Source: a virus
Reading direction: 5' to 3' (one strand)
Virus record (IMG/VR): IMGVR_UViG_3300015341_000001
Location: 1-38,164 of that record
DNA: 38,164 nucleotides
Position 1 is the stretch's first letter; the number at the start of each line of letters is the position of its first letter. The translations under genes were made by a program, and so were the position numbers. The notes under the pieces were generated by a model. It ran no database searches, was not told the origin of the DNA, and worked only from the letters and a program-made list of their open reading frames with translations. Positions 5,940 through 38,164 of this stretch are shown here, one piece after another.

Positions 5940-6244
5940 GGCGGATTCAGCTATGGGCATGGGCACTCGAGAACCTCGAGGACATCGAGAGCGACTTCTC
6001 GGTCTTCCATCGGGTGCCCGACCCAGAACTGCTCCCCGCCGACCGGTTCATTTCGCTCGCACAGCGCCTCCCGGCGTATAAGGGGATCGTCCGCATGAGA
6101 ATCGAGATCGAGGCCAACGAGCCCAGCTCGTCGCCCAGCCACAACTACAACGCAGGGCGCGAGTCCGTGCGCGAGGTCAAGGCGACCAGCGCGCAGCTCG
6201 CGACCGACCCGGGCCTCGGCGGCTTCTTCGAGGTGGTCGTCTAA
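5583..6244 (+). CDS. Tail assembly chaperone G-T fusion made by -1 programmed frameshift at 5927..5933
   Basis: After a -1 slip on G GGA AAA the -1 frame stays open from 5933 to the TAA at 6242..6244. It reads RLRRIQLWAWALENLEDIESDFSVFHRVPDPELL... and ends overlapping the tape-measure ATG. Confidence 0.75.
5927..5933 (+). promoter_or_regulatory. -1 ribosomal frameshift slippery heptamer G GGA AAA
   Basis: A canonical X XXY YYZ heptamer in the zero frame of the G-like gene (codons aag gga aaa ggc taa). Confidence 0.75.
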
Positions 6245-20062: not shown

Positions 20063-20130
20063 GATGCGTTTCCGTTTCTCGTTTGCGTTTTCGGTTGCCC
20101 GTCGCAGGTAGCGGCGGGAGTCTGTGGGTG

Positions 20131-20259
20131 CTACTCGGGTTGAGCTAAGCCAGTTTGGCCACAGGCGAGACAGGGCTCGTCATCGCGCATGTCGCCGCCG
20201 TCGAAGTAGCCTGCTCCAAGGCAGTGGAAACAAACTTCGACCTCTTCGGGGTCGCTCAT
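20131..20259 (-). CDS. 42-aa zinc-ribbon peptide (two CxxCxGxG-like motifs)
   Basis: ATG 20259 overlaps the exonuclease stop (ATGA). Sequence MSDPEEVEVCFHCLGAGYFDGGDMRDDEPCLACGQTGLAQPE. Confidence 0.5.
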   Translation of the reverse strand: MSDPEEVEVCFHCLGAGYFDGGDMRDDEPCLACGQTGLAQPE

Positions 20260-22070
20260 TCGCCCGCCTCGACCCTCGCGTTGAACGCCGCGACCGCAGC
20301 GGGGTCGGCGAGGTCGACCGACTTGTCGATGGCGCGCTTGCCGGTGTTGCGGAACGCGCGACCCTCGGCGGTGATGCGGTTGCCGAGGCGACCGGTCACG
20401 AGGTCGACCGCGTAGATGTGGCACGTGCCGGTTCCCTGCGGCAGGTGAATCACCACGCCCTTCGTGCGCGACAGCTTGAGGTCTTCGCGCTCGTCGGGGC
20501 GCTCCGGGTCGTAGCCCTGCATGCCCGCGTAGTTCTCAAGCTGCAGCGACAGGCTGATGCCGTAGTCGATCGAGCCCGTCTTGATGTCGCTGACGACCCG
20601 CACGGCGCGCTTCATGCCGGGGAACTTCACGAGGCTGATGCGGTCGAGGCGACCGGCGACCTTGCGCTCGTCATCGACGACGAACTTCTCGTACTCGACG
20701 TGCTTGATGCCCGACGCCTCGATCGCACGGCCGTACGCTTCGATGTCAGCGAGGTCCGCCGGCGTGATCTTGCCCTCGGTGAGCAGCTCGGCCACGGCAT
20801 CGATGCCCTCCTTGTCGTAGAGCTCGGCGAGAGCGTGCAGCTCGGTGCCCTTGTTCGCCGCCTCCTTCGAGCCGCCCAGCTCCTCGAGCTCGACAATCAG
20901 GCCGTTGACGCCATCCTTGAACGTCTTTTCGGCGGCGGCGACGAGCGTCGCCAGTTCCCCGACGGCGAGCTTGCCCTTGCGGTCGGCCTTCCGCGCTTTG
21001 GCGATGGCGACGTCGCGGTTGTGCATGAGGTCGCGGATCGTCCCGAGGCGATCGACGATCTCGCCGTCCTCGCCGGGAGTCTGGTCGAGGATGACACCCT
21101 CGAGCAGTTTCCGCTTGGACCACTTCTCGAGGTTCGTCTTGTCCTCGATCAGCTTGATGTACGTCGTGACGCGGGTGTAGCCCTTGAGCTTGCCGTCGGC
21201 GCCCTGCACCTTGTACTGGCCGAGCCCGTTCAGCTTGATGTACGTCGTGACGCGGGTGTAGCCCTTGAGCTTGCCGTCGGCGCCCTGCACCTTGTACTGG
21301 CCGAGCCCGTTCAGCTCGACCTCCGGCTTCGCGTCACTCGGCACCGCGAACGCGGCAGGCTCGGACTCGGCTGCAGCGTCGCTTGTGCCGGCCTCGAAGA
21401 CGCGGCCCTTCTCCGTCTCGACCTCTTCGACCACCTGGTCAACAGCAGACTCGAGCTCGGCCACGGCTTCGGTGGCGTGCTCGACGACAAGCTCGACAGG
21501 TGTCGGCCCCTTTTCGATGACGACCGGCGGCGTGGTCTGCAGCGGCGTGACGCCCTTGACGCGCTTATCGCTGGCGTCTTGCTCGGCGGTCGACGTGGCG
21601 TAGCTGCCGGTCGCCTTGCCGTACGTGTCGTTGTACGCGGCGACGGCCTCGGCGTCGGAGCGGTCGAGCGCTTCGAGCGCGGCCGGGGCGTCACGGCGCA
21701 GACGCTTCGCGCTGACGCGCGCCTTGATCTCCGCGTCAGTGTCGTCGTCGCTCGGAACGGTGACGCCCAGCAGCGCGGCCTCGGCCTTCTTCTTCGCCGC
21801 GGTGGCTGCTGCGATGGCGCCCTTGCTCGAGCCTTTGGCGGTGAGGATGCGGTCGGCCGAAGCAATGATCGACTGGGGTGTCACGCTGTTCTCGACGTCG
21901 GCGGCAGCTTCGGTGACGACGTGCCGGTCAATCGTTTCGAGAATCGGCTTCGGCTTCTTGCTCTTCTTCTTGCCGGCCTTCTTCGCGGCCTTGGCCTCGC
22001 GTTCGGCGAGCTCGGCGGCGAGGGCGGCCTCGCGTTCGGCGAGGCGGCGCTGCTCTTTCTTCTTGCCCAT
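20256..22070 (-). CDS. PD-(D/E)XK (RecB/Cas4/lambda Exo-like) exonuclease with a long low-complexity N-terminal extension
   Basis: Motifs GTELHALAE, AGRLDRI, VSDIKTG (D-x-K) and QLENYAG. ATG 22070 lies 7 nt after GAAGGGA; the ORF-track start at 22121 is a TTG. Confidence 0.8.
   Translation of the reverse strand: MGKKKEQRRLAEREAALAAELAEREAKAAKKAGKKKSKKPKPILETIDRHVVTEAAADVENSVTPQSIIASADRILTAKGSSKGAIAAATAAKKKAEAALLGVTVPSDDDTDAEIKARVSAKRLRRDAPAALEALDRSDAEAVAAYNDTYGKATGSYATSTAEQDASDKRVKGVTPLQTTPPVVIEKGPTPVELVVEHATEAVAELESAVDQVVEEVETEKGRVFEAGTSDAAAESEPAAFAVPSDAKPEVELNGLGQYKVQGADGKLKGYTRVTTYIKLNGLGQYKVQGADGKLKGYTRVTTYIKLIEDKTNLEKWSKRKLLEGVILDQTPGEDGEIVDRLGTIRDLMHNRDVAIAKARKADRKGKLAVGELATLVAAAEKTFKDGVNGLIVELEELGGSKEAANKGTELHALAELYDKEGIDAVAELLTEGKITPADLADIEAYGRAIEASGIKHVEYEKFVVDDERKVAGRLDRISLVKFPGMKRAVRVVSDIKTGSIDYGISLSLQLENYAGMQGYDPERPDEREDLKLSRTKGVVIHLPQGTGTCHIYAVDLVTGRLGNRITAEGRAFRNTGKRAIDKSVDLADPAAVAAFNARVEAGE
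21150..21311. repeat. Perfect 2 x 81-bp tandem duplication inside the exonuclease gene
   Basis: 21150..21230 is identical to 21231..21311, and the next 5 nt also match. It encodes LNGLGQYKVQGADGKLKGYTRVTTYIK twice, in frame. Confidence 0.95.
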
Positions 22071-22104
22071 GGTGCGGTCCCTTCGGGGGTGAGTGTTGAA
22101 CGTA

Positions 22105-22263
22105 TCAGCGACCACCGACAACGGCGTGCGCCGCGTCGAAGGCGTAGATCGTGGAGAGGGTGGCGGCGTAGCCGACCGCCATGAGGCCGATGGTAAGAAC
22201 GACGACCGTCGCGCCTCGGGCGATGCTGCGCCGGCGGTACCAAGCTGCGGTGTGCTTCGTCAT
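22105..22263 (-). CDS. 52-aa single-TM membrane peptide
   Basis: Not in the ORF track (<60 aa). Hand translation gives MTKHTAAWYRRRSIARGATVVVLTIGLMAVGYAATLSTIYAFDAAHAVVGGR. Third positions are G/C-rich and it fills an otherwise empty gap. The SD is weak. Confidence 0.45.
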   Translation of the reverse strand: MTKHTAAWYRRRSIARGATVVVLTIGLMAVGYAATLSTIYAFDAAHAVVGGR

Positions 22264-22283
22264 GGCTTTACGTTAGTGGCGCG

Positions 22284-22574
22284 TCACGCGCTTGTCAAGC
22301 CGTGCGCCCACTGTTCCGCGAAGCGAGCGAAGACGGGGCGACCGTTACTCACCCACCACTCGATGAGCTCGGGCGATGCGTAAGCCTTGGCCGTCGCGCC
22401 GTTGCCTTCGAACAGGTCGAACGCGTCGACGCCGGCGCGACGCCCCCGCTCGTTGAGTAGCGACCCGCGACATGCTTCGGCGGCCTTGTCGTACTCCGCC
22501 GCCTTGTAGTCGTCGAACGCGGCACGAGCTTCGGCACGGGCCTGCATCGCGTACGCGAAGAACGGCTCGGTCAT
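22284..22574 (-). CDS. Hypothetical protein
   Basis: 96-aa ORF with an ATGA overlap with the upstream gene. Confidence 0.6.
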   Translation of the reverse strand: MTEPFFAYAMQARAEARAAFDDYKAAEYDKAAEACRGSLLNERGRRAGVDAFDLFEGNGATAKAYASPELIEWWVSNGRPVFARFAEQWAHGLTSA

Positions 22575-26954: not shown

Positions 26955-29395
26955 CGTTTGGCCTTTCGAGGTGACGTGGTGGGGCGCGACGCGATGTCGG
27001 TGACAAGAGCGTCGCCCGGGTTGGTGATGGTGCCTTCGGTGTCGCGGTACTTCACGCCCAACAGGCTCATTGCTACGACGGGGGGCTTGACGCCAAACGC
27101 CCGCGTAGGCATCGACGGCACGTTCTTCAAGCCGAACCGTACGACGTGCTTCTCGATCGACGGCAAGGAGACGTGCCCTGAAAACCGGCCCGAGATGAGC
27201 GAGTCGGACCAGGGGTGTTGCGACCTTTGCTCGAGGAACCGATTAAAATCGTCGCAGAGTTGCCGGATGGGGATGGCGTAACCAGGGGCGAGCTCGAGGT
27301 GGTCGCGAACGTACGCGAGGATCGGGTCAGCCTCCATGCGCCAGTCCTCGGTGTCGGACTCGACACGCTTCGGCATGGCGGGCATGACCTTGCCGGCGGC
27401 GTACCACTCGATGGCGCCTTGAACGAGCCACCGCAACACGGCTGCCGAGGGAGTGGTGAACGCGGGCTTGAGTCGCGGGTCACCGTGACGGTCCGAGCTA
27501 CCCTGCAGCTCGGAAGAGGGCTTGACGAAGCGCCAGGGGAACTCGACCAGGCCGAGCCGGCGCCATGTTCCGTGGTCCGTTTCGGCAATGACGGGGCGGT
27601 AGTTCGTTGAAATGAACAGGGCGTGGGTCGCCTGCCACTCGATCGTGTCCTGGCGCATGCGACGGGCCCTGATCTTGTCCGTACCCACGGTGTCTTTCAA
27701 TCGGGCAACGTCGAGGTTCCGGCCTTCGGCGAGTTCTTCCGCGATGGCAATACGCGCGCCCATGAGGTCGGTGAGCTCGGTGGAGTGCGCCCCCGGCTGC
27801 GACATGAGAATCTGCTTGGACACAGTGACCGAGTAGTTGCCCGTGGCGTATCGCACGCCGTCGAGGATGGTCGACTTGCCGTTCTCGCCACCGCCTCGGA
27901 TGATCGGCATGACCGCATCGTCGGGCGTGTAGCCGGTGCAGGCTTGGCCGAAGCGGACCTGCATCCACTTCGCCACCTTCTTCGTGGAGAACGCATTGAG
28001 CGCTTTGGCCCACAATTCTTCTTCCACCGGGTCGACGTCGAGCAGGTACTCGGCGCCGGCGATCTTGGTGAAGAGATAGGCCGGGTCGTGCTCGAGCAGC
28101 TCGCCGGTGCGGAGGTCGACGACGCCGTTCTGCACGTTGAGTAGGTCCGGGTGCGAGTCGAGCGCTTCGGCCTCTTCGGCAACGATGCCAAGTGCGAGGC
28201 GCGCGATCGAGACGATGCGGCTGCGCTGCAGAAGAGTGGTGATCGCGGGGATGCGTTGCTTCTCTTCGCGCATGATCGCGCCGTGCACTTCTTCGGCCAC
28301 GATCTTCTTGACCAGCCGGCGCGTCGCCTCGAAGAGGGAAGTCTCCGGTGCGGTGACCCACACCTTGCCGTCGTAGCGGAGTAGGCCGGTGCCCTCGACG
28401 GTGGTCCAGTGGCCGCGAATCCTGTCGGCGATCTCCTCGGCGACGGGAGAGTCCTCGAGGTAGCGGGCAGACCCCTGCGGTTCAACGGGGCCTTCGGCTT
28501 TTCCCTCGGCCCTCGACTTGAGCTGTTTGCGCTCGGCCTTGGTGATCTCGAACGTGACGGGCGGGGCGCCATAGTGAGCGACCGAGCCCTCGAGCGCGGC
28601 ATCCCAGTGACGGTCGTACTCGGGGAAGTCCTGCACGTAGGTGGTGCGGGCTCGGTCGAGCGCTTCGGCAACGCCGGGGCGGCCCTCGGCTCCGAGCTGC
28701 ACGAGGCGGGTGACCGCATCAAGCATGTCGCCGTGGGACATGCCGTCGGCGGTGACGGCCTTGCGTGCTGCCTTGACTTCGGCGTCAGGCTTGCCGGCTC
28801 GGAGACGGGCGAACCACGCGTCGACGGGGAGTGAGTCGCCGCGTGGTGCTACGGCGTCCCTGCGGGGCACCAGGGCCCAGTCAGGGGCGGGTGCGAGCTT
28901 CGGGGCAGAGGTGAGCGCGTCGCCGTAGTAGACCGCAAAGCCGTTGCCGCTGCGGATGTCGACGTGATCGACGGGGTGGTCCGTGGCGATGGTGAGCTCT
29001 ACCCCCTCGGGGGCGGCGTAGAGGTAGTGACTCCCGCCGCTAGGGGTGAGGTAGTTCAGCGTGTTGCGCCACTCGGGGTAAGCCTCGTCGATGTCCGCGG
29101 CCTCGAGGTGGAGCGAGCCCGAGCCTGAGCATCCGGCGGGATGGGTCTTGGTGTTGCACCCCTTCTCGTCGATGTCGACCACGACGAGGCCGGAGCGGCC
29201 GGTGTGGACGCCGATGTAGGCCCCGGGGAAGTCGATCGACCACCACGTGGCGATCTGCTCGGGGTCGGTGGTCGCCTCGTCGTTCCAGCGGACGTAGGGC
29301 TGCTTCCCGGCCTTCGGGTCGGGGTTGACGGGGAAGACGTACCAGCCGGCCTCGCGAGCCAAGGAGAGGGCGACGTCGAGCGGGTCGCGGGTCAT
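26951..29395 (-). CDS. Bifunctional primase-polymerase / D5-type (superfamily 3) helicase
   Basis: N-terminal prim-pol motifs (YVFPVNP, VVVDIDEKG, PSGGSHYLY) and a C-terminal P-loop IIRGGGENGKST. 814 aa. Confidence 0.9.
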   Translation of the reverse strand: MTRDPLDVALSLAREAGWYVFPVNPDPKAGKQPYVRWNDEATTDPEQIATWWSIDFPGAYIGVHTGRSGLVVVDIDEKGCNTKTHPAGCSGSGSLHLEAADIDEAYPEWRNTLNYLTPSGGSHYLYAAPEGVELTIATDHPVDHVDIRSGNGFAVYYGDALTSAPKLAPAPDWALVPRRDAVAPRGDSLPVDAWFARLRAGKPDAEVKAARKAVTADGMSHGDMLDAVTRLVQLGAEGRPGVAEALDRARTTYVQDFPEYDRHWDAALEGSVAHYGAPPVTFEITKAERKQLKSRAEGKAEGPVEPQGSARYLEDSPVAEEIADRIRGHWTTVEGTGLLRYDGKVWVTAPETSLFEATRRLVKKIVAEEVHGAIMREEKQRIPAITTLLQRSRIVSIARLALGIVAEEAEALDSHPDLLNVQNGVVDLRTGELLEHDPAYLFTKIAGAEYLLDVDPVEEELWAKALNAFSTKKVAKWMQVRFGQACTGYTPDDAVMPIIRGGGENGKSTILDGVRYATGNYSVTVSKQILMSQPGAHSTELTDLMGARIAIAEELAEGRNLDVARLKDTVGTDKIRARRMRQDTIEWQATHALFISTNYRPVIAETDHGTWRRLGLVEFPWRFVKPSSELQGSSDRHGDPRLKPAFTTPSAAVLRWLVQGAIEWYAAGKVMPAMPKRVESDTEDWRMEADPILAYVRDHLELAPGYAIPIRQLCDDFNRFLEQRSQHPWSDSLISGRFSGHVSLPSIEKHVVRFGLKNVPSMPTRAFGVKPPVVAMSLLGVKYRDTEGTITNPGDALVTDIASRPTTSPRKAKR

Positions 29396-29598
29396 TTGAC
29401 CAGGGGGGCCACAAGGGCGTAGTCGCTACGCCTTGGTTGACCACTCAAAAGGCTACGAGCAAAACCGCCGACTGAATCCCAGACTCCCTGAACGCCTCGA
29501 GCAAGCATTTCGCCGCACAGGCGGTTGGCGCGGTCGAGCATGGGGTCGAAGCCCCGAGAGAGGCAGGTCGCTTCATAAAGCGGAGTGGGGGTGGTCAT
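29392..29598 (-). CDS. Small hypothetical protein, first gene of the leftward arm
   Basis: Internal ATG 29598 (MTTPTPLYEATCLSRGF...). ATGA overlap with the primase gene. The start choice is uncertain. Confidence 0.5.
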   Translation of the reverse strand: MTTPTPLYEATCLSRGFDPMLDRANRLCGEMLARGVQGVWDSVGGFARSLLSGQPRRSDYALVAPLVK

Positions 29599-29656
29599 AG
29601 AAGGTCCGATCGTTGGGTGTTGCGCTAGTCGTGGGAGCTGGTCTTGCTTGCCGGAT

Positions 29657-29717
29657 GGTCGGCCCCAGTCGGTCACGCGGGAGATGGGGACCCACGCTTC
29701 GTCAACTGGGGCCGACC
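29657..29717. repeat. 13-bp perfect inverted repeat (hairpin) in the leader of the leftward arm
   Basis: ggtcggccccagt (29657..29669) pairs with actggggccgacc (29705..29717), leaving a 35-nt loop. Confidence 0.85.
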
Positions 29718-29754
29718 TTGCCGACTAGAGCAAGGGACCGGAGCACCCGGCTAC

Positions 29755-29783
29755 ATCGTGGCATGCGGTCCTCGTTCCGTCAA
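29755..29783 (-). promoter_or_regulatory. Putative leftward early promoter TTGACG-N17-CACGAT
   Basis: Minus-strand reading: gggcTTGACGgaacgaggaccgcatgcCACGAT, about 150 nt upstream of ATG 29598. Confidence 0.35.
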
Positions 29784-29801
29784 GCCCGTTTCGGTGGGCC
29801 G

Positions 29802-30075
29802 CTTAGCTCGGGGAATCGTGGCTGCTAAGAGTGTAAAAGTGTAAACGATGTAAAGGCTTCTATGTTCCGCTTCTTAGGCGCACACACACAGGCAAGGAGT
29901 TTCAGAGCAACGTTTACATCGTTTACACATTGGGTTTAGGGGGTAGCTAAGCGGAGCCGTCGCCCCTTAGCGCGCCCCGCGCCGCTTGCTAAGCCCGACG
30001 CCCTTCGCTTAGCAACGCCGAAACGCGCCACTCAACTAACGTTCAGGATAAGCGGCGTGATTTGCGGTCGCTAAG
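29802..30075. promoter_or_regulatory. Cluster of GCTAAG / CTTAGC half-sites arranged as spaced palindromes (putative operators)
   Basis: CTTAGC-N16-GCTAAG at 29802..29829, GCTAAG-N14-CTTAGC at 29946..29971, TGCTAAGC-N12-GCTTAGCA at 29987..30014, and a single GCTAAG at 30070..30075 just upstream of the -35 hexamer at 30084. Confidence 0.6.
29831..29928. repeat. TGTAAA iterons and a 16-bp perfect inverted repeat in the A/T-richest part of the genome
   Basis: gTGTAAAa, gTGTAAAc and aTGTAAAg lie at 29831..29854. The arm gtgtaaacgatgtaaa (29839..29854) has its exact reverse complement at 29913..29928. A (CA)5 run sits between them. Confidence 0.85.
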
Positions 30076-30083
30076 AAAAGGCC

Positions 30084-30112
30084 TTGCATCCCGAGTGACG
30101 CGCCACTATGCT
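30084..30112 (+). promoter_or_regulatory. Putative rightward early promoter TTGCAT-N17-TATGCT, ending 6 nt before ATG 30119
   Basis: Hexamers and spacing were read directly. The ATG sits at the expected transcription start, implying a leaderless mRNA. Confidence 0.5.
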
Positions 30113-30118
30113 GGGGGT

Positions 30119-30280
30119 ATGAACCGACTCAACCAGCTCATGACCGTCGTCTGCACCCTCGTTGCGTTCGCAGCATTTGGGTTGTGCCTTCGCTACCTCG
30201 TCTTTGACGACAACCTGGCACTCGGAACATTCTTCGGCTTCGCGGCCGTCATCAACCTCCTGGTCGCTCAGAAGGACTGA
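30119..30280 (+). CDS. 53-aa 2-TM membrane protein (first rightward gene)
   Basis: MNRLNQLMTVVCTLVAFAAFGLCLRYLVFDDNLALGTFFGFAAVINLLVAQKD. The ORF-track TTG start at 30062 would lie upstream of the promoter. Confidence 0.6.
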   Translation: MNRLNQLMTVVCTLVAFAAFGLCLRYLVFDDNLALGTFFGFAAVINLLVAQKD

Positions 30281-30282
30281 CT

Positions 30283-30900
30283 GTGGCCCTCTACGCACAC
30301 ACGCACCTCGGGATGCCGGCACCGCGCCACACGCTCACCGAGGCGGCAGAGGCTGCACGCGTGGCCGTTCGCCAGCTCCCCCCATCCCGCCTCGTCGAGG
30401 TCATCACCAAGTCAGGAGTCACTATGAAAACGTCTCGAGCACCGCTCACCCGCCGCGAGGTCGAGGAGGCCTACGTGCACCCGGAGCCGGAGATGCCGGC
30501 ACGGGAGGTTGTATACGCGTGGCTCGTTGAGGTGGAGCGCGCCCACACGACCGTCGCCTTCGTACTCAAGGCCGAGGCCGCCGGCGCCGACGTCAAGGTC
30601 ACGGTCGCCCGCGGCACGACGCTGCCGAAGTGGCACGTCAACGCGCCGGACTCGAAGCCGAACCCGGGCCCGCCCGTCGACGCGGCGCAGTACCACGGCG
30701 AGGTCGTCGACTCGGTGGTCGTGTGGGCGAGGCGAGCGAAGCGAGGCGAGCGGTGGGTAGACCCTCACGGTGACCGTTGGTTCGATGGCTGGTGCAAGGT
30801 TCGCGCCGAGTGGCACAACGGTCGCATCCACGAGGTCACGGTCAACGGCGCCAAGTCGTCGCTCAAGGCCGCGCTCGAGGCGTTGGGGGCGACGTCGTGA
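30283..30900 (+). CDS. Hypothetical protein
   Basis: GTG lies 6 nt after GAAGGA. 205 aa. An alternative start is ATG 30424, after AGGAG. Confidence 0.6.
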   Translation: MALYAHTHLGMPAPRHTLTEAAEAARVAVRQLPPSRLVEVITKSGVTMKTSRAPLTRREVEEAYVHPEPEMPAREVVYAWLVEVERAHTTVAFVLKAEAAGADVKVTVARGTTLPKWHVNAPDSKPNPGPPVDAAQYHGEVVDSVVVWARRAKRGERWVDPHGDRWFDGWCKVRAEWHNGRIHEVTVNGAKSSLKAALEALGATS

Positions 30901-31166
30901 GCTACGTCGGTGACCGTGACCGTTCCGGTAGCCGCGACCGTTCCGGCAAGGGCGTCGGCTACTACGACCGCACGCGCAAGGGCCCCGCGATCGGCGGCAT
31001 GGTTCGCCCCAGCAAGCGACGCGATGCCTCTGCCGGCACCGAGGCGTGGCGCGGCACCGTGCAGGGCGCTGATCTCCGCACCGACTGCGCGCTCGTGGTG
31101 TGGTCGCACCAGCCGACGATCCTCCACCGCATCCCGTATTCGTGGCTCGTCGAGGTGACTTCGTGA
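30897..31166 (+). CDS. Hypothetical protein
   Basis: GTGA overlap with the upstream gene. 89 aa. Confidence 0.55.
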   Translation: MSYVGDRDRSGSRDRSGKGVGYYDRTRKGPAIGGMVRPSKRRDASAGTEAWRGTVQGADLRTDCALVVWSHQPTILHRIPYSWLVEVTS

Positions 31167-31315
31167 CCCTCGACTGGCACCACCTGACCATCACTGCTCG
31201 TGACGGCGAGGGCGTAGGGCTCGAGTGTTCGTGTGGCTGGACGTGGACGTCACCGTTCGTTGTCGAGTCGTTCGGCGCGTTTTCAGAAGTTGCACGCATT
31301 CACCTCCACCGGTGA
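31163..31315 (+). CDS. Small hypothetical protein
   Basis: GTGA overlap. 50 aa (VTLDWHHLTITARDGEGVGLECSCGW...). Confidence 0.5.
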   Translation: MTLDWHHLTITARDGEGVGLECSCGWTWTSPFVVESFGAFSEVARIHLHR

Positions 31316-31319
31316 CGTT

Positions 31320-31415
31320 GTGACTCTCGACGCCGGCCCGATGTGCCCCTACTGTTTCAAACGTGGCGTCCACCTCGCCTCGTGTTCCGCACCTCAACCG
31401 AAGGATAAGCCGTGA
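31320..31415 (+). CDS. Possible 31-aa Cys-containing peptide
   Basis: GTG 31320 (VTLDAGPMCPYCFKRGVHLASC...). Its stop overlaps the next GTG. Short, so weakly supported. Confidence 0.3.
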   Translation: MTLDAGPMCPYCFKRGVHLASCSAPQPKDKP

Positions 31416-31675
31416 CTATCAACCTGACCGACGTGACGTTCGACCTACTCGTCGCTGAGCAGCTGCACGACATCGTGCCGTGTGCGATTGACGAGTGTGA
31501 GAGCACCGCGCACTGGTACCTCCGCTGCTGCGGCTGCGGCAACCTGATCCTCCGTTGCGCGTCGCACCGTGCGGTCGTCGATCGCCGCCACATCGGCGCG
31601 CTGTACACGGATTGCGTGGAGTGCGATCACGTTTACGCGGTCAGCCCCACGCCTCTCCCCTGGGTCGCCCTGTGA
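31412..31675 (+). CDS. Cys/His-rich small protein (putative zinc binding)
   Basis: GTGA overlap. Contains CAIDECES...RCCGCGNLILRCASH...CVECDH. Confidence 0.6.
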   Translation: MTINLTDVTFDLLVAEQLHDIVPCAIDECESTAHWYLRCCGCGNLILRCASHRAVVDRRHIGALYTDCVECDHVYAVSPTPLPWVAL

Positions 31676-31887
31676 CCCGGCACGGCTGGCTCGAGCCGTG
31701 GAGCGGGCCGATCTACACGGAGTGCGCCACGGGCAAGACGGCCTGGGCCGAGCGAGCGCACGCACGCAACGCGCTGCGGTCGATGCCGAAGGGCCATGGC
31801 ATGAGCGCGTACCGCTGCCAGGGCTGCGATCTCTGGCACATCGGCCACCTCGCGCCGGTCGTGAAGCGTGGAATGAGCGAGCGATGA
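31672..31887 (+). CDS. Small zinc-ribbon-like protein
   Basis: GTGA overlap. Contains YTECATGK...YRCQGCDLWHIGH. Confidence 0.6.
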   Translation: MTRHGWLEPWSGPIYTECATGKTAWAERAHARNALRSMPKGHGMSAYRCQGCDLWHIGHLAPVVKRGMSER

Positions 31888-32081
31888 GTGGCAAATGGAA
31901 CGTCGGTTACCTCGACGACACCGACGAGGTTCACGCGTGGCCGGTTGACGATCTCGTTGCGCATGAAGCGCAAAGTTGCGCGTGTGGCCCTAGCCTCGAA
32001 GCCGTTCCGCGACCGGATGGCTCTACAGGGTGGGCCCACTGGCACGCCTCGCTTGATGGTCGCGAAGCGTACGAGAGGTAA
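31884..32081 (+). CDS. Small hypothetical protein
   Basis: ATGA overlap. 65 aa, with HEAQSCACGP...WAHWHASLDGRE. Confidence 0.6.
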   Translation: MSGKWNVGYLDDTDEVHAWPVDDLVAHEAQSCACGPSLEAVPRPDGSTGWAHWHASLDGREAYER

Positions 32082-32090
32082 GATGCGACC

Positions 32091-32288
32091 ATGACTCCCG
32101 AAGAGCTGGCCGTCGGAACGGTCGTGGTGGTCGCCACCGCTGACCACCCCCGCTGTTGCGAGGGCCGAGAAGGCGTGGTTGTGGCTTGCCGTTGCGGTTA
32201 CCGCCACCCCGGTATCGCGGTCGTCGAGCCCTTCGGCACGAAGTCGACGTACCGTTTCAGTGTGGGTCAGCTCGAGGTCAAGTCATGA
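32091..32288 (+). CDS. Small hypothetical protein
   Basis: The ATG is preceded by the conserved 17-mer taagatgcgaccatgac. 65 aa. Confidence 0.6.
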   Translation: MTPEELAVGTVVVVATADHPRCCEGREGVVVACRCGYRHPGIAVVEPFGTKSTYRFSVGQLEVKS

Positions 32289-32536
32289 CCTCCGAAGCTG
32301 TTCACTACCTCGCCATTCAGGTCGAGTCCTATTGCGACTCGACTCGCCTCGGCATTTTCGACACGCTGGAAGCGGCGCAGAAGTACATCGAAAACGAACC
32401 GGGCGCCGAGGCTGTGGACGTGCAGGGATGGCGGGGCGACGAGCAAGTTCTTGACTCAGCGCGGTGGAGCCCAGCAAGCCACCCTTACAAGTGGACGACG
32501 AAGTACTACGCGAACGGCCGCGAGGTTAAGTCATGA
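32285..32536 (+). CDS. Small hypothetical protein
   Basis: ATGA overlap. 83 aa. Confidence 0.6.
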   Translation: MTSEAVHYLAIQVESYCDSTRLGIFDTLEAAQKYIENEPGAEAVDVQGWRGDEQVLDSARWSPASHPYKWTTKYYANGREVKS

Positions 32537-33105
32537 CCGCCGCCCCGAACTTCCGAGAGCTGATCGCCGTGCGCGTGATGCGCGAGCAAGAGTGGGCTTA
32601 CGAGCAGCGCTCGCGCCACCTCTCGTATCGCGAAATGCGCCGGCGCTCCATCCTCCCGACGTACCAAGGCGGCCTCGGCTACGACGTCAGCGAGCACACG
32701 CTCAAGGGCCTCGTCACCGGCTACACGGAACGCATGCGCGAGACGTTGCAGGAGTCGCCGGAGTTCTACATGCACCGCGAGCTCGCCGACCTCGAAGAGC
32801 AGTACCGCGTCGCCGCCGCGCTGGCCGACCCGATCGACCGCAGCGCGACGATGCTGGCCGCCTACGCGTTGGGCTTCGAGTCTGTCGAGGAACTGCTCGC
32901 CGAGTCGCCCGCGTCTGCCGTGCCGCAGGACGGTCGCGTCATCCTTGCCGCGTTGGCGACGATGCGGCAGACAGGCGAGCGCCGCGCGAAGCTGCTCGGC
33001 CTCGACGCCGCGACGACGCACAAGCTCGACGTCACCGTCACCGATGCCGTCGACGCCGAGGTCGCGCGCCTCGCCGCCGAGCTGGACAGCGCCGCCACCT
33101 CGTGA
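32533..33105 (+). CDS. Terminase small subunit (by position)
   Basis: 190 aa, directly upstream of and coupled to the large terminase. Helical and charged. No specific motif recognised. Confidence 0.55.
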   Translation: MTAAPNFRELIAVRVMREQEWAYEQRSRHLSYREMRRRSILPTYQGGLGYDVSEHTLKGLVTGYTERMRETLQESPEFYMHRELADLEEQYRVAAALADPIDRSATMLAAYALGFESVEELLAESPASAVPQDGRVILAALATMRQTGERRAKLLGLDAATTHKLDVTVTDAVDAEVARLAAELDSAATS

Positions 33106-34637
33106 CCCCCCTCGAGCGTGTCCGCGCGAAGCTTGCCGCGACGGCGCCGAACGGCGAGTGGGACGGGCCGGCGTACGCGTCGCCGCTGGGGCGGAAGGCT
33201 GCGACGTATGGCGACCCTCTCGCGTTTGCCGTCGTGTACCTCGGTCACCACCTCCGCGACGCCGACGGCCGCATCACCCTCTCCTCGATCCACGTTGCGT
33301 GGGCCGAGTCCGCGAAGCGGTGGATGCGCGTCGATACGGAGCCGATGGACGATCGCCGGAGTGAGGTCGCTCCGCGCGAGTCGGGCAAATCGACCTGGCA
33401 CTTTCTTCTGCTGCCGATGTGGGCCGCGGCACACGGGCACAAGCGCTTCGCCGCCGCTTTCGCGAACACCCCGTCGCAGGCTGAGACTCAGCTCGCCTCG
33501 TTCAAGGCCGAGCTCGGCAGCAACGTGCTGCTTCGTGCCGATTACCCCGAGCTGTGCGAGCCCAAGACGCGGGGGCGCGGAACGGTGGAGGCTGACCGGG
33601 TGTCGCTCTACCACGCGCAGAGCGGCTTCGTGTTCGCCGCATCGGGGATGGATTCGGCGAACCTCGGGCTCAAGGTCGGCAACACGCGACCCGACCTCCT
33701 TATCATGGACGACATCGAGCCGCACGAGTCGAACTACTCGCCGGCGCTGGCCGCGAAGCGTCTCGACACTTTGCAGTCTGCGATCCTCCCGCTCAACATT
33801 CGCGCGTCGGTGATCCTTGTCGGCACGGTGACGATGCCAGGCAGCGTGGTGCATCAGGTCGCGCAGTACGGCAACGGCTCGCGCGCGCCAGAGCTGCAGT
33901 GGGTCGCCGAACAGCACATCGTTGCGCGCCACTTTCCCGCGCTCGTCACCGAGGACGACGGGTCGCGCGTGTCGATTTGGCCGGAGAAGTGGCCGACACA
34001 GATGCTGCTCGACATGCAGCACACGCGGCACTACCTGAAGAACTACGCCAACGATCCGCGCGGTGGCGAGGGCGGGTACTGGACGATCGAAGACCTGAAG
34101 CGCGAGCCGGCCGACAGCGGCCTGGTCATCACGCACCGGCTTCTCAGCGTCGACCCCGCCGTCACGACAAAGGGGACGAGCGACTTCACCGGCCTCACGG
34201 TCCTCGGGTTCAGTCGCCCGGAAGGCCGCGTCGTGGTCCTCGGTTCGTGGCAGGTGAAGCTCGACCCGGAGAAGCTGCGGGCTCGCGTGCTCGACATCGT
34301 GAACGACTACGACGTCGGGCTGCTGCTGGTCGAGACGAACCAGGGCGGCGACCTTTGGCGCGGCATCTTCCACCACCTACCGATCCCGCTGAAAACCGTG
34401 CACCAGTCCGCGTCGAAGGAGGTACGCGCTGCCGAGGCGCTGAACCACACGCAGCGCGGCAAGGTGACACTCGCCGAGGGCGCCGACCTCGCAGCGCTCG
34501 AGGCGCAGCTCGTGTCGTTCCCGAACGCGCCGCACGACGACATGCTCGACTCGTTCACGTCGGGCGTCATTTACTTCATGTCGACCACGAAGAAGCGCCG
34601 CAGCGGCGTCGGCGCGACGAGCGTCGCGTACGCTTGA
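33102..34637 (+). CDS. Terminase large subunit
   Basis: GTG 33102 overlaps the upstream TGA. Walker A APRESGKST and Walker B DLLIMDDIE, with a nuclease-type C-terminal half. The ORF-track N-terminal extension is Arg-rich and overlaps the small-subunit gene. Confidence 0.9.
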   Translation: MTPLERVRAKLAATAPNGEWDGPAYASPLGRKAATYGDPLAFAVVYLGHHLRDADGRITLSSIHVAWAESAKRWMRVDTEPMDDRRSEVAPRESGKSTWHFLLLPMWAAAHGHKRFAAAFANTPSQAETQLASFKAELGSNVLLRADYPELCEPKTRGRGTVEADRVSLYHAQSGFVFAASGMDSANLGLKVGNTRPDLLIMDDIEPHESNYSPALAAKRLDTLQSAILPLNIRASVILVGTVTMPGSVVHQVAQYGNGSRAPELQWVAEQHIVARHFPALVTEDDGSRVSIWPEKWPTQMLLDMQHTRHYLKNYANDPRGGEGGYWTIEDLKREPADSGLVITHRLLSVDPAVTTKGTSDFTGLTVLGFSRPEGRVVVLGSWQVKLDPEKLRARVLDIVNDYDVGLLLVETNQGGDLWRGIFHHLPIPLKTVHQSASKEVRAAEALNHTQRGKVTLAEGADLAALEAQLVSFPNAPHDDMLDSFTSGVIYFMSTTKKRRSGVGATSVAYA

Positions 34638-34652
34638 CGCGTCACTAAGTAG
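34632..34652. repeat. Left junction repeat, copy A (gcttgacgcgtcactaagtag), spanning the terminase stop
   Basis: Identical 21-mer at 36978..36998. Homology continues imperfectly through ctaggct and atgac.aat. Confidence 0.9.
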
Positions 34653-34662
34653 CGGCTAGGCT
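34634..34662 (+). promoter_or_regulatory. Putative promoter TTGACG-N17-TAGGCT, ending 6 nt before ATG 34669
   Basis: Read directly. The -35 hexamer overlaps the terminase TGA. Confidence 0.5.
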
Positions 34663-34668
34663 GGGCAC

Positions 34669-34962
34669 ATGACGAATGAATCCGACGCCCCCGTGACGCG
34701 ACCCGACCTCGACGCGCTGATCGCAGAACTGCATCGCGAGCTGAATTTGCTCATCGAAGAGGCAGTCGCAGCAGAGCGTGAACGGCAGATCACCATTGGT
34801 TACGACCAGAAACACGACGATGCGCACGGCCTTGACCACCTCTGGGGCTGGGCTCAGCACTACCGGGCCAAGGGTGAGTTCATCAAGTCGCTAGCCCTGT
34901 TTCGGGCTTTTGATGAATCGCAGAAACGCAGGGTCGTGGCGATTGGGAGTGGGACCAGATGA
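34669..34962 (+). CDS. Hypothetical protein with a GYDQKHDDAHGLDHL motif (first gene of cassette 1)
   Basis: 97 aa. Codon third positions are visibly more A/T-rich than in neighbouring genes. Confidence 0.65.
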   Translation: MTNESDAPVTRPDLDALIAELHRELNLLIEEAVAAERERQITIGYDQKHDDAHGLDHLWGWAQHYRAKGEFIKSLALFRAFDESQKRRVVAIGSGTR

Positions 34963-35063
34963 GCCCCGTTGAATGGCACCTGTTGCTGTCTGGCTTCGCA
35001 AGTGGATTTTTGGTTGCTTTGGCCTTAGCAGACGCCGTTGATCGGCATAGGAGCAAGAAATGA
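34959..35063 (+). CDS. 34-aa single-TM peptide
   Basis: ATGA overlap. MSPVEWHLLLSGFASGFLVALALADAVDRHRSKK. Not in the ORF track (short). Confidence 0.45.
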   Translation: MSPVEWHLLLSGFASGFLVALALADAVDRHRSKK

Positions 35064-35149
35064 CCATGGATAACAGCATTCCCGCGGGCATTATGCGCCT
35101 GACTCGTGAGCGCGACGAGTCTCGCGCCGCTCCAACCGCCGAGCAATGA
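35060..35149 (+). CDS. 29-aa peptide
   Basis: ATGA overlaps on both sides. MTMDNSIPAGIMRLTRERDESRAAPTAEQ. Confidence 0.35.
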   Translation: MTMDNSIPAGIMRLTRERDESRAAPTAEQ

Positions 35150-35382
35150 AGAACGCACGAGGCCGGACGTTCGGCACCCCGCTCACTCCGCGCCAGTTCG
35201 ACACGCTGCTGCTACTCGCCAGCGGCGAGACGGGGACGAGCATCGCGGCCGAGCTGGGTGTGCAACCGAACACGGTCCACGTTTTCACGGTGCAGCTCAA
35301 GGCGAAGCTCGGTGCGAAGACGACCGCTCACGCCGTTGCGATCGGCTACCACACCGGCCTGTTGACCGTCGCCCGAGCATAG
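35146..35382 (+). CDS. Stand-alone LuxR/GerE-type HTH DNA-binding protein (second copy in the genome)
   Basis: LTPRQFDTLLLLASGETGTSIAAELGVQPNTVHVFTVQLKAKLGAKTTAHAVAIGY. ATGA overlap with the upstream peptide. Confidence 0.8.
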   Translation: MKNARGRTFGTPLTPRQFDTLLLLASGETGTSIAAELGVQPNTVHVFTVQLKAKLGAKTTAHAVAIGYHTGLLTVARA

Positions 35383-35402
35383 GCCCGCGTCGGGGCCGCA
35401 TC

Positions 35403-35432
35403 CGCTAAGATGCGTCCATGACCAACGCGCCG
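35403..35432. repeat. Right junction repeat, copy A (cgctaagatgcgtccatgaccaacgcgccg), spanning the portal start
   Basis: 29 of 30 nt are identical to 37247..37276. Confidence 0.9.
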
Positions 35433-36983
35433 GAGAAGCTCGACGACATTCAAGCCGACCTCGGCCGCGCGTTCCAGCTCATGGATGACAAGCACGACGG
35501 GTACGTCGCCGCGTTCGAGTACCACGCCGGCACCCGCCACGAGGTTGCGTCGTCCGAGACGGTGCGGAAGATCATCGAGAATAGCGCCGAGGCGCACCCG
35601 ATCAGCCTCGCGCACATCGCCGTCGACGCCCCGTTCGACAAGATCGAGCTCACCGCCATCACGTCGCCCGACGCCGCAGCGTCCGCGCTGCTCGAAACGT
35701 TCTGGCTCGCGAACGACGTCGAGGACGAGTCGGACGACTGGCACCGCAAGGCGGGCATCTACGGTGACTATTACGTCATCCTCGACATCACCGAGACGGA
35801 CAACAACGGCAACGCCACCGAGTTCCGCGCGGTCGGTTCGTCGCCCCTCTCGACCATCACGATGTACTCGTCGAAGGACCAGCGCACCCCGCTCTACAGC
35901 GTGAAGCGGTGGCGTCACGGCCGCGACGCGTACGCGAACGTCTTCTATGACGACGTGACGGTCCGCCTCGTCGCGACGGGCGCCGGCGAGTCGACGCTCG
36001 ACCCGAAGAAGTTCCAGTACGAGTACGACTTGGACCCGACTGACGGCACGCCCATCGAGGACTCGGAGCGACCCAGTCACCCGGGTGGTCGCCAGCTCGT
36101 CGTGCACTACGCCGTGGACAGCAAGCCGTACGGCACGCCGGTGCACGTCAAGGCGTTCGGCCCGCAGGACGCGATCACGAAGGTGTCGGCGACGAACCTC
36201 GCGAACGTCGACGGGCAGGGCTTCGGCGCCCGCTACGCGCTCATGGACCCGATGGCCGAGATCGACGATGACATCGACGATGACTTCGGAACCGATGGCC
36301 CGGGCACCTCGAGCGCGGACAGTGACGGGCTGACGAAGGCGACGACCAAGGCCGTCAAGTCCGGGCCCGGGGCGGTCGCCCTTCTCAAGGGCGTCAAGAG
36401 CGTCGGCGAATGGGCCGCCACCTCGAGCGACGACTTCTTGAAGAACCTCGACTGGTACGTCCGCGTCATGGCTGTCGCCACCGGCGTGCCGCTGTTCGAG
36501 TTCGACCTCAACGGCGAGCAGCCGTCCGGCGAGGCGCGTCGCCGTGCCGAGGGGCGGATCAACCGTCACGTGAAGAAGATCATGCGCGCGCTCGGCGGTG
36601 CCAGCGAAGAGCTCGGCCGTCTCGTGCTGCTCGTGCAGGGCCGCGACGCCAAGGTGGTTGCGGATTTCGCGCCGACCGAGAACGCGATGGACAAAGACGG
36701 CCTCGAGCTCGTGTCGGCGAAGGTCAAGGCGGGCATCCCGCTCAAGGTCGCGCTGCTCGAGCAGGGGTACCCCCAGTCCGAGGTCGACGAGTGGTTCCCC
36801 GAGACGTTCGGCTTTTCCCCCGAGCTGGTTGCCCTTATCGCGTCCGCGCTGCAGCAGCTCGGACAGGCGAAGACGCTCGGCGTCATCACCGACGAGGAAC
36901 TCGCCGACATGCTGCCGACCATCCTTACCGGCGCGCGCGGCGAGGCGGTCTCCGTCGACGTACCAGCCGAGACTGTTGCTTGA
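35418..36983 (+). CDS. Portal protein
   Basis: 521 aa, between the terminase and the MuF-like gene. Acidic, with typical portal size and position. Confidence 0.85.
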   Translation: MTNAPEKLDDIQADLGRAFQLMDDKHDGYVAAFEYHAGTRHEVASSETVRKIIENSAEAHPISLAHIAVDAPFDKIELTAITSPDAAASALLETFWLANDVEDESDDWHRKAGIYGDYYVILDITETDNNGNATEFRAVGSSPLSTITMYSSKDQRTPLYSVKRWRHGRDAYANVFYDDVTVRLVATGAGESTLDPKKFQYEYDLDPTDGTPIEDSERPSHPGGRQLVVHYAVDSKPYGTPVHVKAFGPQDAITKVSATNLANVDGQGFGARYALMDPMAEIDDDIDDDFGTDGPGTSSADSDGLTKATTKAVKSGPGAVALLKGVKSVGEWAATSSDDFLKNLDWYVRVMAVATGVPLFEFDLNGEQPSGEARRRAEGRINRHVKKIMRALGGASEELGRLVLLVQGRDAKVVADFAPTENAMDKDGLELVSAKVKAGIPLKVALLEQGYPQSEVDEWFPETFGFSPELVALIASALQQLGQAKTLGVITDEELADMLPTILTGARGEAVSVDVPAETVA

Positions 36984-36998
36984 CGCGTCACTAAGTAG
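36978..36998. repeat. Left junction repeat, copy B, spanning the portal stop
   Basis: Identical to 34632..34652. Confidence 0.9.
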
Positions 36999-37007
36999 TG
37001 CTAGGCT
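36980..37007 (+). promoter_or_regulatory. Putative promoter TTGACG-N16-TAGGCT, ending 6 nt before ATG 37014
   Basis: Same architecture as the promoter at 34634..34662. Confidence 0.5.
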
Positions 37008-37013
37008 ACAGTC

Positions 37014-37223
37014 ATGACAAATCAGAACCCCAATCAGGCCGAGCTTGTTTTTCAGCGGAACGACATTGTCAAGTTTCCGACTGGGGGAGTGTTCTACAAA
37101 GTGGTCACAATCCGCGGCGATGACATCTACATTCGCATGGCGTCTGGCAACGCAAATCGGGCAAGCACTCGGCGCGTTACGGCAGATCGTATTCGACTCC
37201 ACCGCCGCCCCGAGGTGGGTTGA
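37014..37223 (+). CDS. Small beta-rich hypothetical protein (cassette 2)
   Basis: 69 aa. MTNQNPNQAELVFQRNDIVKFPTGGVFYKVVTIRGDDIYIRM... Codon usage is A/T-richer. Confidence 0.6.
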   Translation: MTNQNPNQAELVFQRNDIVKFPTGGVFYKVVTIRGDDIYIRMASGNANRASTRRVTADRIRLHRRPEVG

Positions 37224-37246
37224 TTACCCAGCAGTGGGGTCCCGTT

Positions 37247-37276
37247 CGCTAAGATGCGTCCATGACTAACGCGCCG
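37247..37276. repeat. Right junction repeat, copy B (duplicate of the portal translation-start region)
   Basis: cgctaagatgcgtccatgactaacgcgccg, compared with 35403..35432. Confidence 0.9.
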
Positions 37277-37288
37277 CAGGCTAACTGA
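37262..37288 (+). other. 8-codon mini-ORF (MTNAPQAN), a copy of the portal 5' end terminating on the MuF-like start (TGATG)
   Basis: atg act aac gcg ccg cag gct aac tga. The final A of the TGA is the A of ATG 37288. Confidence 0.4.
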
Positions 37289-38163
37289 TGAGCGCGGAAC
37301 AGCAGCTCACCGAGCTCGAGGAGCGCGTGCTTGGCACGGTTCGCATCGGCGGGTGGCTCGCTGCCGTCAAGGAGTTGCGGCTGCTGCTCGCGATGGAGTC
37401 GCCCAGCATCCGCCGCGCGCTGTTCGCGCTCTACGCGCCGAAGGTCGAGACGAGCGCGCTAGCCGCCGTAGCCGACGCGTTCGGGCTGGGCCGCGCTGAC
37501 GCGCTCGAGCTGCTGGGCGACGACGCAGCGAAGATCGCGAAGCGCACCGCAAAAAGCGTGCCGGGCAAGGGTGCGCGTGATCCGATCCGCGGGCTGGACA
37601 AGGCGGGCGTTTCCGCGTTGGGCGCCGCGGTTGCGTTGGCGAAGACGGGCGCGGAGCCGGCGACCTACCTCGCGCCGATCTTCGGGCACGCCGACGCCAT
37701 CGAACGACGCGTGTCCGACGCGATCAACCGTGGCGGCAACGAGGGGGCGACACGGGTCGCCGATGTCGCGGGCTTGCCGACGGTGTGGATCGCCGAGCGG
37801 AACGCGTGCGTGCACTGCCTCGCGTACGCCGGTCGCGTTGCGAAGCCTGGCGAGTCATTCCCGGGCGGGCTGACGTACGGCAAGAAGAGCTACTACCCGA
37901 ACCCGCTTCCGACCCCGCCTCGACACCCGCGCTGCCGCTGCACCGTCGAGCCGTTGCTCGATCAGAGCTACGCGGATGCACTCAAGCGCGAGGCCGATCG
38001 GTCGATCCTTCGCGGCATCTCGCTCGAGTCCGAGTCGATGGGCGTTCGCGTCGACGCGGCGAAGCGACTGGTTGACGGCGGGGTAGTCGCCCCGAAGAGC
38101 GTCATCGCGTTTGCGGAACGCGCGGTGAGGTCGGGCAAGTTCCCCACACGTGGTCGGGTGTGA
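37288..38163 (+). CDS. MuF-like (SPP1 gp7 family) head morphogenesis / minor capsid protein
   Basis: ERNACVHCLAYAGRV...PTPPRHPRCRCTVEPL matches the Phage_Mu_F signature (C..C ... PP.HP.CRC). Lies after the portal. Confidence 0.85.
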   Translation: MSAEQQLTELEERVLGTVRIGGWLAAVKELRLLLAMESPSIRRALFALYAPKVETSALAAVADAFGLGRADALELLGDDAAKIAKRTAKSVPGKGARDPIRGLDKAGVSALGAAVALAKTGAEPATYLAPIFGHADAIERRVSDAINRGGNEGATRVADVAGLPTVWIAERNACVHCLAYAGRVAKPGESFPGGLTYGKKSYYPNPLPTPPRHPRCRCTVEPLLDQSYADALKREADRSILRGISLESESMGVRVDAAKRLVDGGVVAPKSVIAFAERAVRSGKFPTRGRV

Positions 38164-38164
38164 A
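38042..38164. repeat. Terminal direct repeat, copy 2
   Basis: Identical to 1..123. Confidence 0.95.

Follow-up and report, generated by a model that had tools for sequence, protein, structure and literature searches.

Morons are reportedly transcription units that have been added between neighbouring genes of a phage genome. Cluster K mycobacteriophages are said to carry start-associated sequences (SAS), a 13-bp motif that contains a Shine-Dalgarno (SD) sequence, is present in a dozen or more copies and probably acts in translation, and leaderless short upstream open reading frames (ORFs) have reportedly been described in Actinobacteria. Here we compare with such systems cassette 2, a segment between the portal gene and the gene of the MuF-like minor head protein in a 38,164-nt stretch of viral DNA (IMG/VR virus record IMGVR_UViG_3300015341_000001, positions 1 to 38,164; hereafter the window). 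Cassette 2 carries a 69-aa orphan gene, g69, framed by two repeated junction elements, P_A on the left and P_B on the right. The promoter-early stem-loop (PeSL) cassettes of T4-like phages, each a promoter and a functional stem-loop terminator, recombine with one another and yield mini-circles (Arbiol et al., 2010, PMC2839356; Comeau et al., 2014, PMC4122927). In Mycobacterium tuberculosis, the hexamer TANNNT lies 7–12 bp upstream of 73% of primary transcription start sites, the hexamer often has CGN in front of it, the −35 region shows no consensus and leaderless mRNAs are plentiful (Cortes et al., 2013, PMC3898074). Stop and start codons that overlap as UGAUG are a recognised arrangement for termination-reinitiation (Huber et al., 2019, PMC6728339).

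P_A (GCTTGACGCGTCACTAAGTAG) is present at 34632–34652 and 36978–36998 with 21/21 identical nt, and both copies continue into TAGGCT, 6 nt and ATGAC. The TGA inside its TTGACG is the stop codon of the large terminase (TerL) gene in copy 1 and of the portal gene in copy 2. P_B (CGCTAAGATGCGTCCATGAC, then C or T, then AACGCGCCG) is present at 35403–35432 and 37247–37276 with 29/30 identical nt, and the likeness extends to 44 nt at 86% (35392–35435 vs. 37236–37279; repeat family D5). An earlier note on this DNA had described both junctions as shared by two cassettes, and the portal gene as bracketed by direct repeats of both types. We confirm this, and chance is excluded: the P_A 19-mer occurs twice in the window vs. 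0.00 expected, and a P_B 17-mer with up to three mismatches has four matches vs. 0.05 expected. That note had missed a third P_B copy, at 32079, and the general pattern TANNNT-N6-ATGAC.

Relatives were identified through the portal protein, and comprised three IMG/VR contigs (95–98% identity) and four short metagenome contigs. In L002, L003 and L004, whose portals are 95–98% identical to that of the window, nothing lies between the portal and MuF genes, and neither P_A nor P_B is found there; three bases separate the portal stop from the MuF start (GTT GCG GAG TAG cgc GTG AGC). In the distant Microbacterium phage OscarSo, portal and MuF homologue are likewise adjacent, with the MuF homologue overlapping the portal stop. 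In silico excision of 36980–37277 yields ACT GTT GCA GGC TAA ctg ATG AGC, in register with CCC GTT GCG GAG TAG cgc GTG AGC of L002 (the uninterrupted junction, with cassette 2 removed, is GTTGCAGGCTAACTGATG). The excised form encodes a portal of 522 aa that ends V-A-x, vs. 524 aa in the relatives, followed by stop, 3-nt spacer and start as in the relatives. Because the relatives lack the insert and its excision restores their junction in register, cassette 2 is, by this comparison, a lineage-specific insertion of a complete single-gene terminase–portal gap, with the portal–MuF junction as its target.

The polarity and boundaries of the insertion can be read from its two ends. The left end is the TTGACG that carries the TerL stop, exactly where the terminase–portal gap of the relatives begins, and the right end consists of 44 nt of pre-portal type sequence with P_B, plus portal codons 1–5. 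At the left join donor and recipient have GC in common, and at the right one C/G. Since the target lacks P_A and P_B and offers only this 1–2 nt microhomology, the repeats around the portal gene are a consequence of the insertion and not its cause. The earlier proposal that cassette 2 was captured at pre-existing docking sequences is therefore not upheld. The accompanying argument, that retention of the repeats implies function, is weak logic: a recombinant that deleted the portal gene would be inviable, so the repeats persist either way.

The reading that we favour, and consider reasonably probable, is a moron-type insertion from a related phage, combined with leaderless promoters in P_A and P_B and a possible coupling to MuF. 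The single-gene gap of a related phage (P_A, g69, P_B and the first five portal codons) would have been copied into the portal–MuF junction by illegitimate joining through 1–2 nt of microhomology. The insertion would have replaced the last codon and stop of the portal gene, left direct repeats of both junction types around it, parted MuF from the SD-bearing portal end and given rise to a leaderless ORF of eight codons that ends in UGAUG. The final codon and stop of the portal gene are now insert-derived (GCT TGA). A two-step origin, with a portal duplication followed by an internal deletion, was rejected as less parsimonious; both joins use one recipient site within 1 nt.

The joins also bear on an assembly artefact, in which the assembler would have misjoined strain variants at short repeats and produced a false cassette 2. 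The cassette stems from a single metagenomic contig (MEGAHIT k141_380283, ERZ27250641), and related strains with other gap cargo exist in similar samples. Against this, the novel joins GTTGC/TTGACG and GCGCCGC/AGGCTAA share no k-mer with the other copies, unlike a repeat-induced misjoin, and the repeats (21–44 nt) are far below the final k = 141. The copies differ from each other (1-nt shorter spacer, discriminator, C/T and G/C changes), the frames are preserved, with the portal gene gaining a stop and the MuF start intact, and the total of 38,343 nt is like the 38,494 nt of a relative. We regard an artefact as highly improbable. The coordinates of the features are collected in Table 1.

Table 1. 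Features of the packaging and head-assembly region and of one minus-strand unit; positions are those of the window.
Feature	Position	Strand	Remarks
TTGACA-17 nt-TAACGT-6 nt-ATG unit and 52-aa ORF	22105..22298	−	Third full TTGAC-N17-TANNNT-N6-ATG unit; ORF at 22263
P_B copy 3	32077..32090	+	GG-TAAGAT-GCGACC, before g65; TAAGATGCGACCATGAC at 32079; g65, 65-aa gene upstream of TerS
g65 and g83 cargo pair	32091..32536	+	Between P_B and TerS; absent at that spot in L002 and L004
TerS (small terminase)	32533–33105	+	
TerL (large terminase)	~33096–34637	+	phrog_38, E = 8e-57
P_A copy 1	34632..34668	+	TTGACG −35 (after GC; holds TerL stop), 17-nt spacer, TAGGCT −10, 6 nt, ATG of g97
Cassette 1 cargo	34669..35382	+	g97 34669–34962, g34 34959–35063, g29 35060–35149, helix-turn-helix (HTH) gene 35146–35382
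P_B at portal	35392..35417	+	CGCATC-CGC-TAAGAT-GCGTCC, then ATG; CGN-TANNNT −10, no −35, no SD
Portal gene, 521 aa	35418..36983	+	SPP1_portal, phrog_104
P_A copy 2	36978..37013	+	TTGACG, 16-nt spacer, TGC-TAGGCT, ACAGTC, ATG of g69
Cassette 2 insertion, 298 nt	36980..37277	+	Spans the −35 with its TGA through portal codon 5/6; breakpoints ambiguous by 1–2 nt
g69, 69-aa orphan gene	37014..37223	+	No Pfam or PHROG match
P_B copy 2	37236..37261	+	Core CGCTAAGATGCGTCC identical to portal copy; upstream 14 nt diverged
Mini-ORF MTNAPQAN, 8 codons	37262..37288	+	ATG ACT AAC GCG CCG CAG GCT AAC TGA
MuF-like minor head protein gene, 291 aa	37288..38163	+	

The order TerL stop/P_A, variable genes, P_B/portal was found in L019, L020, L021, L022 and L003/L004. 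The terminase–portal gap is, judged from these contigs, a hypervariable accessory-gene locus with two conserved ends in this phage group. Its cargo in the window (cassette 1) consists of g97, g34, g29 and a GerE-type HTH gene. L003/L004, which come from two samples, carry a 112-aa gene and the HTH gene, followed by a second, tandem P_A with 67- and 50-aa genes; L020 carries another gene and the HTH gene, and L019, L021 and L022 carry a single gene each. L002 has no P_A and contains a degenerate tRNA-like element instead (5920–5979; Rfam tRNA 25.5 bits, under the gathering threshold of 29), for which ARAGORN calls nothing. This element lacks a D-arm and has a perfect T-arm and a CCA end, and its 3′ end is similar to GAAGCC, with which the sequence ahead of P_B ends in L003/L004. 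The cargo genes are alike only over their first 5–19 codons (MTNES... or MTNQNP...) and diverge thereafter. For g97 the part in common with the cargo of relatives is the first 15–19 aa, and for g69 the first six codons (MTNQNP) recur in the cargo gene of L022.

The earlier note had suggested looking in related genomes for the same junctions around different cargo, and for the terminase–portal gap this is what we observe. In a docking-site model resembling PeSLs, P_A and P_B would be substrates of short-homology recombination, and crossovers inside these 20–30-nt elements would have brought in cassette 2 and would swap cassettes in general. The identical junctions around different cargo in six relatives, the tandem P_A units of L003/L004 and the clustering of the left mosaic boundaries just past P_A, where cargo likeness ends, are consistent with it, and PeSL motifs that mediate indels in T4-like phages are a precedent (PMC2839356; PMC4122927). 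In addition, GC/TTGACG, beside a palindrome, TGACGCGTCA, is where both of the independent secondary P_A copies begin (window 36978; L004 5589). This shared start hints at a favoured site of breakage or switching, but coincidence plus selection could account for two events. The model is countered by the cassette 2 target, which lacks both elements in every relative and shows microhomology of 1–2 nt only; by the TerL and portal flanks, whose kilobases of ∼95% homology are enough for cargo swaps without P_A or P_B; and by the pair g65/g83, which sits downstream of P_B, so that P_B is not consistently a right-hand border. Motif recombination and flanking-gene homology are inseparable in the TerL–portal gap. 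We consider the docking-site model unlikely.

P_A would be a sigma-A-type promoter (TTGACG, 16–17 nt, TAGGCT) whose −35 supplies the TerL stop, and P_B a promoter with a −10 only (CGC-TAAGAT). The −35 and −10 of P_A are invariant in 10 instances over seven contigs. Among the relatives, the −35 hexamer, CGTCACTAAGTA after it, the −10 hexamer and the ATG position do not change; the 6-nt discriminator does (GGGCAC, GGCCGC, GGGCGT, ACAGTC), as does the end of the spacer. The spacer of copy 2 is 1 nt shorter than that of copy 1, which gives the extended −10 form TGC-TAGGCT. P_B precedes the portal gene in all six distinct relatives, and its core is invariant save for one A/T position; in L002 and L004 it also lies directly on the TerS start, where g65 and g83 intervene in the window. 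The argument for function of the junctions would thus be the invariance of the −35, −10 and ATG positions while neighbouring bases vary.

Both elements place the A of the ATG 7 nt past the hexamer, so the transcripts would be leaderless, and their geometry looks like that of actinobacterial promoters of leaderless mRNAs. A TANNNT hexamer ends 6–7 nt before the start of g97, the portal gene, g69, the mini-ORF, g65 and a minus-strand 52-aa ORF. The window contains six occurrences of TANNNT-N6-ATGAC vs. 0.12 expected, and only three of TTGAC-N16-18-TANNNT in 38 kb vs. 0.48 expected, all with an ATG 6 nt later (0.08 expected). Pairing with the anti-SD is negligible at the portal and mini-ORF starts (−0.4 kcal/mol each), −2.4 kcal/mol at g69 and intermediate at g97 (−4.7 kcal/mol), and ranges from −6.5 to −7.7 kcal/mol for TerS and the internally coupled cassette genes. 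The earlier note had the junctions double as a promoter and a translation start; both roles fit at the sequence level, and from this fit we infer activity. Nine of the 11 start codons in 32091–37262 read ATGAC (Met-Thr), including all six placed 6 nt past a TANNNT hexamer.

A perfect 10-bp palindrome, TGACGCGTCA, lies within P_A and overlaps the −35 (34634–34662 and 36980–37007), and the same segments close all three upstream frames with stops TGA, TAA, TAG and TAG. At the portal gene, an inverted repeat CGCATC-N6-GATGCG overlaps P_B. The 78-aa HTH protein that ends cassette 1 is of the GerE/LuxR type (Pfam E = 6e-10) and belongs to a PHROG family annotated as 'sigma factor' (E = 5e-12). L020 (96%) and L003/L004 (83%) also have it, and none of the gaps with one gene does. 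As a candidate regulator, it may act on the palindromic P_A or on the inverted repeat over the portal P_B.

As the earlier note stated, the ORF encoding MTNAPQAN terminates on the MuF start: its TGA (37286–88) overlaps the MuF ATG (37288–90) in TGATG (37286–37290). The mini-ORF consists of portal codons 1–5 and continues in the +1 register through what used to be the end of the portal gene and the spacer (gC TAA Ctg ATG). Because of this register, the old TAA is skipped and the stop falls at the TGA of ctGATG. The TGATG overlap would most simply be an accident of the join, since TAActgATG was already present, and any of the three frames at the join would yield a short ORF or an N-terminal extension. 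The MuF start at 37288 is backed by the relatives, in which the equivalent position reads GTG AGC GCn GAG CAG CAG. Because MuF of the relatives begins at this homologous codon, right after the portal stop, we rejected the possibility that the mini-ORF is a miscalled MuF N-terminus or a sequencing frameshift.

MuF has no good SD of its own (anti-SD pairing of −2.6 kcal/mol), and in the relatives MuF has a GTG start and a GGAG SD inside the last codons of the portal gene. P_A would yield a leaderless g69 mRNA, and P_B would restart transcription at 37262. Ribosomes (70S) would enter at the 5′-terminal AUG, translate eight codons, stop at the UGA and reinitiate on the MuF AUG. In this way the mini-ORF may load ribosomes onto MuF, a coupling suggested by its layout.

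The insertion could also be real and the P_B copy and mini-ORF inert, with MuF transcribed by read-through from upstream and translated from its own weak initiation region (cgcAGGctaactgATG). The failure to find a terminator past g69, the pre-existing sequence that explains the TGATG overlap, and the single genome with the cassette, which gives no evidence of selection, are what one would expect from an inert scar, and the event may be recent, as the P_B core matches that at the portal gene over 100% of its length. Should P_B act as a promoter at the portal gene and TerS, where it is conserved in all relatives, the identical 20-nt core, likewise 6 nt ahead of an ATG, ought to fire at 37262 as well; moreover, the SD of MuF is poor and the GGAG SD of the relatives is displaced. 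We give such inertness little weight.

Several points speak against the favoured reading, that is, the moron-type insertion with leaderless promoters and possible MuF coupling. The rebuilt 21-nt junction is only 11–12/21 identical to the relatives, and the argument is the register of stop and start. Cassette 2 is present in one genome only and its donor is unsampled; n = 1 gives no measure of selection on the mini-ORF. A scan of 29000–38164 for E. coli-type promoters gives no match, because TAGGCT and TAAGAT agree with TATAAT at only 3–4 positions. The consensus is that of Mycobacterium and other Actinobacteria, and may not be that of the host. P_B has no −35, so an activator may be needed, or P_B may not act as a promoter. 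A terminator was found neither at the two cassette ends nor between 37223 and 37262; the cassette-end folds were no better than shuffled sequences (z = −1.23 to +0.72; 37215–37264, z = +0.20), and a conserved hairpin with a T-run was not found at the junction motifs. Without a terminator, read-through could make the P_B copy dispensable, and the mini-ORF AUG would then be internal and lack an SD.

In a more far-reaching view, the packaging modules of actinophages would house a self-contained regulatory cassette, from P_A through P_B, that has a fixed left end and has moved repeatedly, in the manner of a PeSL with leaderless starts. The mini-ORF would then be a selected 'ribosome-loading adaptor' that plugs any downstream gene into a leaderless promoter, and the palindrome TGACGCGTCA could mark a spot prone to breaks or template switches, or be bound by a regulator. 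We rate this view as quite unlikely.

The g69 gene is A/T-richer than its surroundings, as noted before (GC 0.55; GC at third codon positions, GC3, 0.61), with core genes having a GC3 of 0.86–0.92 (portal 0.91, MuF 0.86). The GC3 of g97, g34 and g29 is 0.54–0.68. No homologue of g69 was found in IMG/VR, in 5.8 billion proteins or in 1.84 billion representatives. The sole other match, a protein with a 4x repeat (E = 1e-4), was rejected, as its significance is inflated by the repeats, and a single-sequence AlphaFold2 model (predicted local distance difference test score, pLDDT, 55.6) was too poor for a fold search. From its GC3, the lack of a homologue and the lack of a Pfam or PHROG match, we infer that g69 is foreign, moron-like cargo.

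The window derives from an uncultured high-GC siphophage and is approximately a whole genome in rotated gene order: VanY, scaffold and capsid genes come after MuF on the source contig, and the capsid gene lies at 1793–2749 of the window. Positions 32–38 kb form the packaging and head-assembly module. The nearest isolated relatives are the Microbacterium phages OscarSo and Wyvern, at 72–75% nt identity over part of the portal gene only. These relatives are distant; the phage is probably actinobacterial. A literature search on Microbacterium phages and leaderless expression returned nothing. Neither the portal protein nor the P_A 18-mer had a match in 185,579 bacterial genomes, which leaves no prophage copy and no pointer to the host, and the exact P_A 18-mer had zero matches in 596 Gb of bacterial genomes. 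No integrase was detected in the window, no tRNA was found there, and no Rfam family was found in 31900–38164 at E ≤ 1.

Searches of IMG/VR beyond the relatives returned the P_B 18-mer only in low-GC contigs (0.40–0.44) or unrelated contexts, which we take as chance. A gapped P_A pattern retrieved three extra contigs (L024–L026), all unrelated to the window at the protein level. Two of them, the high-GC L024 (minus strand, ∼596–625) and L025 (minus strand, ∼3957–3986), have TTGACGCGTCAC-N-TTAGGCT, 6–7 nt, GTG and a small ORF, flanked by a 186-aa gene and a TerL-like ORF. This promoter-like leaderless layout is suggestive only; it may be a promoter type that a second phage lineage shares, or a coincidence.

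The pair g65/g83 is, to judge from its absence in relatives, a further lineage-specific insertion (window 32077–32542). It is flanked by CATGAC, both small proteins end in EVKS, and the g65–g83 and g83–TerS junctions repeat CGAGGTyAAGTCATGACC (20/22; family D18). The C-terminal tail of the portal is hypervariable amid 95–98% identity (36960–36979 vs. L002 7540–7575), reading VDVPAETVA(G) vs. VDPAPAPLPVAE vs. VGSALAPLPIAE, and its length differs by two codons among relatives. The minus-strand 52-aa ORF, which the near-consensus TTGACA unit in front of it would drive, has a predicted transmembrane segment (MTKHTAAWYRRRS...) and runs convergently into the end of the plus-strand ORF 20124–22184.

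These data make one step of phage mosaicism legible, with the type of donor locus, the target site and both breakpoints readable to 1–2 nt, and they indicate that an insertion can bring expression signals for itself and for the gene pushed aside. Should P_A and P_B prove to be promoters of leaderless transcripts, (i) they would be small, portable elements (∼35 nt) for gene expression in high-GC actinobacteria; (ii) the locus would be a natural test case for a leaderless mini-ORF that hands ribosomes to an SD-less downstream gene; and (iii) promoter-bounded hypervariable loci would extend from Gram-negative T4-like phages to small actinophages.

When compared with the SAS of Cluster K, P_B is likewise a short conserved motif that abuts several start codons in an actinophage; unlike SAS, it has no SD complementarity, is −10-like and is present in three copies. 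As in actinobacterial leaderless short ORFs, a very short, putatively leaderless ORF precedes a longer gene, but here it is a recombination scar of another gene's first codons. The likeness to actinobacterial leaderless mRNAs (PMC3898074) lies in TANNNT, often CGN-TANNNT, ∼7 nt before an SD-less AUG. Measured against termination-reinitiation (PMC6728339), the locus has the UGAUG overlap and a downstream gene without a strong SD, but the upstream partner in the putative coupling is an 8-codon leaderless ORF and not a full gene.

As with PeSLs, a hypervariable region contains small orphan genes whose borders carry repeated short motifs of promoter type, and these motifs mark indel boundaries between closely related phages. 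In contrast to PeSLs, a terminator half is not detectable here, there are 2–3 copies per genome, the host is probably an actinobacterium and the starts would be leaderless, and cassette 2, the sole insertion that can be reconstructed, involved no motif-to-motif crossover. The resemblance to PeSLs would hold only in the terminase–portal gap.

Like a moron, cassette 2 places a small gene between conserved head genes, is absent from close relatives, differs in base composition from its flanks and carries its own promoter-like sequence, conserved and fitting the actinobacterial consensus. Unlike a moron, it has no terminator found after g69, its promoter would give a leaderless mRNA, and there is no sign of lysogeny here. 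Being the copy of a whole variable locus, the insert also brings in a second promoter-like element and five codons of the portal gene next to it. The locus reveals no new kind of system; it is a moron-like insertion with a leaderless twist.

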